The notes beneath the pieces were generated by a model, which saw only the letters and a program-made list of their open reading frames with translations, was not told the DNA's origin and did no database searches. Positions 53,227-54,420 of a stretch of 64,000 nucleotides of DNA are shown here, in pieces. The stretch comes from Escherichia coli. GTDB taxonomy: Bacteria; Pseudomonadota; Gammaproteobacteria; Enterobacterales; Enterobacteriaceae. Location: assembly GCF_013122565.1 (NCBI RefSeq), contig NZ_CP053258.1, one strand, 5' to 3'. How positions within the stretch are numbered: position 1 is the stretch's first letter; each line of letters opens with the position of its first letter. Both the position numbers and the translations under genes were made by a program.

Positions 53227-54420
53227 TTACATCACCGCAGCAAACGCCTTTGCCACACGTTGTACATTTGCCGTATTTAACCCGGCGACACACATGCGAC
53301 CGCTGGCGATGAGATAGACACCAAATTCTTCACGTAGTCGGTCAACCTGAGCGACACTTAAACCGGTATAACTGAACATGCCGCGCTGATTAAGCAGATA
53401 ATCGAAATTGCGTTCTGGCATCTCTGTGCTTAATACCTTTACCAGTTCCTGACGCATTGCCAGGATGCGAGTACGCATCTCTTCTACTTCCGCCAGCCAG
53501 CTGGCTTTCAATGCCTCGTCATTCAGCACCGCAGCCACCACCTGCGCACCAAAATTCGGCGGGCTGGAGTAGTTGCGGCGAACTGTTGCTTTCAATTGCC
53601 CCAGTATGCGACCTGCAGCTTCGGCATCTTCACACAGAACAGAAAGTCCGCCAACGCGCTCGCCGTAAAGGGAGAAAATTTTCGAGAACGAATTGCTCAC
53701 CAGAGCGGGTAATCCAGCGCTGGCAATGGCACGAATGGCGTAGGCATCCTCTTCCATACCGGCACCAAATCCTTGATAGGCAATATCAAGAAATGGGATA
53801 AGCTCGCGGGCTTTGAGAATTTCAATCACCGCATCCCACTGGTCATTAGTGAGATCGGCACCCGTTGGGTTGTGGCAACATGGATGCAGCAACACAATAC
53901 TGCGGGCAGGTAATGTTTTCAGCGTCGCCAACAGGTCATTAAAGCGCACGCCGTTAGTCGCTTCGTCATACCAGGGGTAAGTACTTACTTCGAATCCAGC
54001 CCCGGCGAATATTGCTACGTGGTTTTCCCAGGTAGGATCGCTGACCCAGACGCCTGATTCCGGGAAGTAGCGTTTCAGGAAATCTGCGCCCACTTTCAAT
54101 GCCCCTGAGCCGCCAAGGGTTTGAATGATTGCTATGCGCTGTTGTTGCAGTACCGGATGGTCCGCACCAAACAGCAGCGGCGCAATAGCATGGCGATAGC
54201 TGTTAAGCCCTTCCATCGGTAAATAAAGCGAAGCGCCATGAGGCTGCGCATTCAGTCGCGCTTCCGCATCCGCCACGGCTTTCAGTTGTGGAATAATTCC
54301 GTCTTCGTTGTAGTACAGACCGATACTTAAATTCACTTTGTCGCTGCGAGAGTCTTCTTTAAAACGCTCCATAAGCGTAAGAATCGGGTCGCCAGCGTAG
54401 GCGTCAACTTTTTGAAACAC
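53227..54420 (-). CDS. tyrB: Aromatic-amino-acid aminotransferase TyrB (GTG start)
   Basis: (M)[22 protein letters not shown]...; 397 aa when started from GTG at 54418-54420; the track start is an upstream TTG. Confidence 0.9.

Follow-up and report, generated by a model that had tools for sequence, protein, structure and literature searches.

The GTG start codon of tyrB and an upstream in-frame TTG in an Escherichia coli chromosome

TyrB is a PLP-dependent aromatic amino acid aminotransferase that produces tyrosine and phenylalanine by transamination and can also make aspartate. The tyrB gene is under TyrR control and its GTG start is textbook knowledge. The tyrB sequence papers published in 1985-86 by Kuramitsu et al. 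and Fotheringham et al. reportedly assigned this start using protein data. The GTG start of the gene is already known for E. coli K-12, and it is retained in the current RefSeq/PGAP and curated K-12 annotations. AspC (1ARS/1AAW), a TyrB paralogue in E. coli, is like TyrB a fold-type I, subgroup Ia aminotransferase, but its start codon is ATG (PMC11782819, Table S2), unlike the GTG of tyrB. The same table, from a base-editing study, names GTG as the START codon of MG1655 tyrB. There, the GTG was edited to ATA, and a double start-codon mutant of tyrB and aspC was an aspartate auxotroph (PMC11782819). This auxotrophy fits with the loss of TyrB function, and not with a harmless Val-to-Ile exchange inside a longer protein. 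The phenotype is nevertheless indirect, as the edit also alters the codon and could touch nearby bases.

The tyrB gene and its chromosomal setting

The window, that is, the whole stretch of E. coli DNA analysed here, spans 64,000 nucleotides and carries tyrB on its minus strand at 53227..54420. The coding sequence, predicted to encode an aromatic amino acid aminotransferase, has 397 codons followed by a TAA stop that is read from the sequence at 53229-53227. The coordinates given for the gene by a first-pass annotation proved exact, the GTG-to-TAA reading frame being 1194 nt long. The program that listed the open reading frames reported instead a product of 411 aa at 53227..54462, which begins at an upstream in-frame TTG. 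This extended product matches the E. coli tyrosine aminotransferase structure 3TAT_A with 871.6 bits across chain residues 1-397, and a second E. coli TyrB structure, 3FSL (397 aa), with 862.5 bits; similarity to AspC is far lower (342-358 bits versus 872 for TyrB). The segment with the PLP-lysine motif SxSKxxxLYGERxG is identical between the window product and 3TAT_A in their alignment. At the family level, the NCBIfam model NF006719 'aromatic amino acid transaminase' is matched with 598.4 bits (cutoff 377) and the Pfam class I aminotransferase family PF00155 with 290.8 bits (cutoff 19.7), and the window TyrB is predicted to have aromatic aminotransferase activity. Compared with the K-12 gene (b4054, NP_418478.1), both proteins have 397 aa, both start with GTG and the spacing of the GGAG element is equal. 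Protein identity is about 97-98%, and the differences include P24S, Q47K, E51D, C76S, K95Q, V98I, T100I, M273L, V282I and A359V, among others.

A megablast search against 5,426 complete E. coli genomes recovered the locus, annotated as tyrB, in 5,425 of them, with identities of 95-99%. The gene order of the window is of the dnaB-alr-...-tyrB-yjbS-aphA type, with ORFs the size of dnaB and alr on the upstream side and a homologue of yjbS on the downstream side; in K-12, too, tyrB has alr upstream and yjbS/aphA downstream. This neighbourhood is that of the RefSeq genomes except for two extra genes between alr and tyrB. Judged by its matches and gene order, the window gene is an ordinary chromosomal tyrB of an Escherichia coli-type genome.

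The two extra genes form an insertion at 54502-56060 (minus strand), between alr (56083-57162) and tyrB. One is a pnuC-sized ORF of 185 aa (55503-56060, minus strand) and the other encodes a NadR-like protein with an AAA_28 domain (54502-55506/55530, minus strand), which reaches 152 bits against the NMN adenylyltransferase model TIGR01526 and stays below its cutoff of 341. This pair of pnuC and a NadR-like ATPase gene is present in the window and absent in K-12 MG1655. Strain D6 carries both genes, under the annotations pnuC and 'AAA family ATPase', and the ATPase gene occurs in about 4 of 20 evenly spaced matches of the genome ranking. The sequence becomes homologous to K-12 again 78 nt ahead of the GTG, and therefore the control region of tyrB is undisturbed by the insertion.

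On the other side of the gene, an AT-rich ORF of 180 aa (52463-53005) lies downstream of tyrB on the plus strand. It represents a long form of K-12 yjbS (67 aa), to which it shows 85% identity over 53 aa, and it contains a tandem duplication of six residues, SYAKDF-SYAKDF. No family was found for it in Pfam or NCBIfam, and other E. coli genomes have short hypothetical or frameshifted genes annotated at this spot. Between both genes, 10 nt after the tyrB stop, a GC-rich 9-bp hairpin is found at 53194..53217 on the minus strand (GCAGGCTGG-agctac-CCAGCCTGC; -19.4 kcal/mol, z = -3.3). The terminator scan made no call here because the hairpin is not followed by a U-run; it may represent a structure at the end of the transcript.

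Evidence for initiation at GTG

The codon at 54418..54420 (minus strand) was proposed as the tyrB start in the first-pass annotation, and homology, the Shine-Dalgarno element, the start codons of orthologous loci and existing annotation all support it. Translation of tyrB almost certainly begins at this GTG (54420-54418). On the minus strand, the region reads CCTGGAGAACCATCGC followed by GTG TTT CAA AAA GTT GAC GCC TAC GCT GGC GAC CCG; given to a different extent upstream, it reads ...TTATTGTGTTTTAACCACCTGCCCGTAAACCTGGAGAACCATCGC GTG TTT CAA AAA.

In the extended product, residue 15 corresponds to the GTG codon. Residues 1-397 of 3TAT and of 3FSL pair with residues 15-411 of this query and positions 1-396 of the 397 in NF006719 pair with the same stretch, so that the GTG is aligned to Met1 of both structures and to position 1 of the profile. 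The alignments of the TyrB proteins from Psychrobacter (4rkc) and Burkholderia (4eff) likewise begin at query residue 15. The N-terminus of AspC is colinear with that of TyrB, its residue 2 pairing with query residue 16. An N-terminal alignment with TyrB and AspC orthologues had been suggested as a check on the start, with orthologues that align through the upstream extension as the contrary outcome; the aligned chains and the profile begin at query residue 15-16, and the 14 residues before them align to nothing. An alignment of 4wd2 that begins at residue 11 was considered as homology to the extension and discarded, as it merely pairs a His-tag (HHHH) with 'ENHR'. A downstream ATG (Met17) was also rejected as the start, given that every orthologue conserves residues 1-16 and that the sequences of the crystal structures include them too.

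The spacing of the ribosome binding site, another check that had been proposed, also favours GTG. A Shine-Dalgarno core GGAG is located at 54430..54433 (minus strand), 9 nt before the GTG, and its region forms a duplex of -6.4 kcal/mol with the 3' end of 16S rRNA. Random 20-mers from the window have a mean of -2.3 kcal/mol, and 7% of them reach -6.0. The 20 nt preceding the TTG give -2.4 kcal/mol, which is the background level, and contain no Shine-Dalgarno element, while positive values are obtained for both of the in-frame CTGs that lie between TTG and GTG.

The comparison was extended to other species by searching contigs from one genome per species with a degenerate DAYAGDPI pattern. This yielded 120 DNA stretches, 116 of which were analysed as tyrB orthologues with enough upstream sequence (46-95% protein identity to the window). 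All 116 have a start codon at the position homologous to the window GTG (72 GTG, 42 ATG and 2 TTG). Of the 116 loci, 10 have an in-frame stop within 3 codons upstream of this position, 43 have one within 13 codons, and 50 lack any alternative upstream start. GGAG is placed at exactly 9 nt in 69 of the 116 loci and at 6-11 nt in 92.

Existing annotation points to the same codon. The RefSeq tyrB CDS of K-12 MG1655 (4267114..4268307, b4054) and those of D6, 100181 and 14EC007 have 1194 nt and start from an identical GTG. The window is identical to K-12 MG1655 over the 78 nt 5' of the GTG, and therefore knowledge of the K-12 start transfers directly to the window. The tyrB guide of the base-editing study (gRNA07, ACACGCGATGGTTCTCCAGG; PMC11782819) is the reverse complement of CCTGGAGAACCATCGCGTGT, which is found verbatim in the window.

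With initiation at GTG, the GGAG core 9 nt upstream would position the 30S subunit and the GUG would be decoded as fMet by the initiator tRNA, to give the 397-residue TyrB. The initiator Met is probably retained, since residue 2 is Phe, as expected from the specificity of methionine aminopeptidase.

The upstream TTG, rival starts and the control region

The reading frame is open for 25 codons 5' of the GTG, up to a TGA at 54498-54496. In this interval, the TTG at 54460..54462 (minus strand) is the sole ATG, GTG or TTG, which confirms the earlier description of it as the nearest upstream in-frame start, adding 14 residues. Two in-frame CTGs, at 54447 and 54435, are found between TTG and GTG.

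The 5' regulatory region of tyrB (54421..54498, minus strand) comprises the 78 nt shared with K-12 MG1655; in it, the conserved elements CTCGATCTTC and CCGGTTTATTGTG are separated by a variable spacer from (C/T)GTAAACCTGGAGAACC. In an alignment of 35 Enterobacteriaceae upstream regions, the blocks CTCGATCTTC and CCGGTTTATTGTG are invariant and the TTG is inside the second one. The spacer after CCGGTTTATTGTG is hypervariable, measures about 14 nt, shows indels of 1, 2, 4 and 5 nt and precedes (C/T)GTAAACC-GGAGAACC. These indels are not divisible by 3, and consequently the distance from the TTG block to the GTG varies between 38 and 43 nt across Enterobacteriaceae. Among 33 Enterobacteriaceae loci, 21 have an in-frame TTG, and in the other 12 the frame is broken by indels. 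An invariant block followed by a frame-breaking spacer is, as a conservation pattern, that of regulatory DNA and not of codons. On these grounds the TTG, 42 nt upstream of the GTG, is read as part of a conserved non-coding promoter/operator block and not as a start codon.

Three other readings of the start have to be weighed against initiation at GTG. The TTG at 54462-54460 could be the true start of a 411-residue TyrB, as annotated in CFT073, O25b:H4, M605 and several JGI entries, and it is the first canonical start after TGA 54498 in an open frame, with an in-frame TTG in those 21 Enterobacteriaceae loci. This is very unlikely, however, considering that its duplex energy does not exceed background, that no homologue or profile matches the extension, that a stop interrupts the corresponding 14 codons in 43 of the 116 orthologous loci, that 12 of the 33 relatives are out of frame, that the codon is embedded in an invariant block of non-coding type, and that the K-12 curated and PGAP annotations choose GTG over TTG. 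A variant in which both codons are used would add a minor extended isoform of 411 aa, made from transcripts that read through from the NadR-like gene. The NadR-like ORF ends at 54502, leaving 81 nt up to the GTG, and the terminator scan found no site between it and tyrB, so that a read-through mRNA would contain the TTG. The arguments against the TTG apply here as well, as it has no Shine-Dalgarno element, its frame is not conserved and the extension has no homology. Moreover, K-12-type strains do not have the upstream insertion and their 78-nt leader is identical, which implies that the TTG was not shaped by the context of the inserted genes. Such a dual start is extremely unlikely.

CTG is a very poor initiator in E. 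coli. Initiation at the in-frame CTG at 54435-54433, five codons upstream of the GTG, would produce a 402-residue protein beginning MENHRVFQK..., and NCBI nr does contain 402-aa entries with a MENHRV start (P0011, P0013 and P0014). In the window, however, the codon at 54435 is CTG, it overlaps the GGAG itself (cCTGGAGa) and so has no Shine-Dalgarno element of its own (duplex of +0.6 kcal/mol), and the residues between it and the GTG are matched by no homologue, which makes this start hardly credible at all. Taken together, TTG, CTG and the dual start account for a very small share of the probability, and the GTG at 54420-54418 is the start adopted here.

The conserved blocks that surround the TTG would correspond to the tyrB promoter and TyrR operator. 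A passage in PMC4374768, which cites Yang & Pittard 1987, places the TyrR sites of tyrB downstream of its core promoter, in a position that occludes the start of transcription. From conservation, TCGATC-N17-TATTGT might be guessed to be the tyrB promoter. If this putative promoter is correct, the TTG would be inside the -10 region and transcripts would start about 33 nt before the GTG, that is, the main tyrB transcript would begin downstream of the TTG. A sigma-70 consensus scan returned no promoter 5' of tyrB on the minus strand. Similarly, a scan for TyrR boxes (TGTAAA-N6-TTTACA, up to 3 mismatches) gave no match near tyrB, and across the window it gave 32 matches versus 23.5 expected, which is not above chance. 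The only half-site-like elements at the window tyrB are GGTTTAT and CGTAAACC, which in relatives read TGTAAA or TTTACA. In inverted orientation, the half-site-like GGTTTAY and YGTAAACC flank the hypervariable spacer just 5' of the Shine-Dalgarno element (54421-54475, minus strand), and in Cedecea and in a Klebsiella-labelled relative the half-sites are perfect TTTACA and TGTAAA. This suggests that the GGTTTAY...YGTAAACC elements are candidate halves of a TyrR operator.

Regarding the transcript itself, no tyrB transcription start entry was retrieved from the accessible portions of the supplementary tables of Kim 2012, Ettwiller 2016 and Yan 2018. The supplement of the GcvB paper names a tyrB::gfp fusion, the 5' end of which is not given in the available passages. 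Between 53000 and 54700, Rfam models gave no match at E<=1, hence no known leader RNA family.

Start-codon choice in databases and in related species

The first-pass annotation warned that automated gene callers could choose a wrong start, and tyrB versions of 411 aa that start at TTG are indeed on record. Records from CFT073, O25b:H4, M605 and JGI/IMG begin MCFNH(L/Q)PVNLENHR, with the same locus and the same TTG as the ORF of the window. These mis-called annotations are products of longest-ORF start selection, with homology, Shine-Dalgarno and conservation all unsupportive. The protein database also holds 402-aa TyrB versions that begin MENHRVFQK, and 397 aa is the length of most of the entries listed, including one cluster with 6,288 member sequences. 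The GTG start of tyrB is in this respect a matter of annotation quality: longest-ORF selection gives TyrB 14 spurious residues, which can mislead the design of expression constructs, N-terminal tagging and start-codon editing. A different arrangement is seen in tyrB of Pantoea, Erwinia and Rosenbergiella, where the Shine-Dalgarno element is contained in ATGGAGA and creates an in-frame ATG 5 codons before the conserved GTG (loci L024, L032, L041, L043, L046, L047, L087, L101, L104, L105 and L111). This ATG constitutes a second, different trap for start-codon callers.

The identity of the start codon follows lineage. The 72 GTG loci belong to the Pseudomonas putida group and to Enterobacterales other than Photorhabdus/Xenorhabdus; the 42 ATG loci come from Aeromonas, Acinetobacter, betaproteobacteria and Photorhabdus/Xenorhabdus. 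TTG occupies the homologous position in Acerihabitans and in a single copy from Mangrovibacter; two tyrB-like loci (L030 and L031) were seen in Mangrovibacter yixingensis. All 72 GTG loci have about 68% identity or more to the window protein, and all loci at 67% or less have ATG, as do some at 68-71%. It is conceivable, though rather doubtful, that selection maintains GTG in place of ATG in Enterobacterales and the Pseudomonas putida group. If true, the weakness of the start codon could serve to keep TyrB translation low, or make it tunable in addition to TyrR repression.
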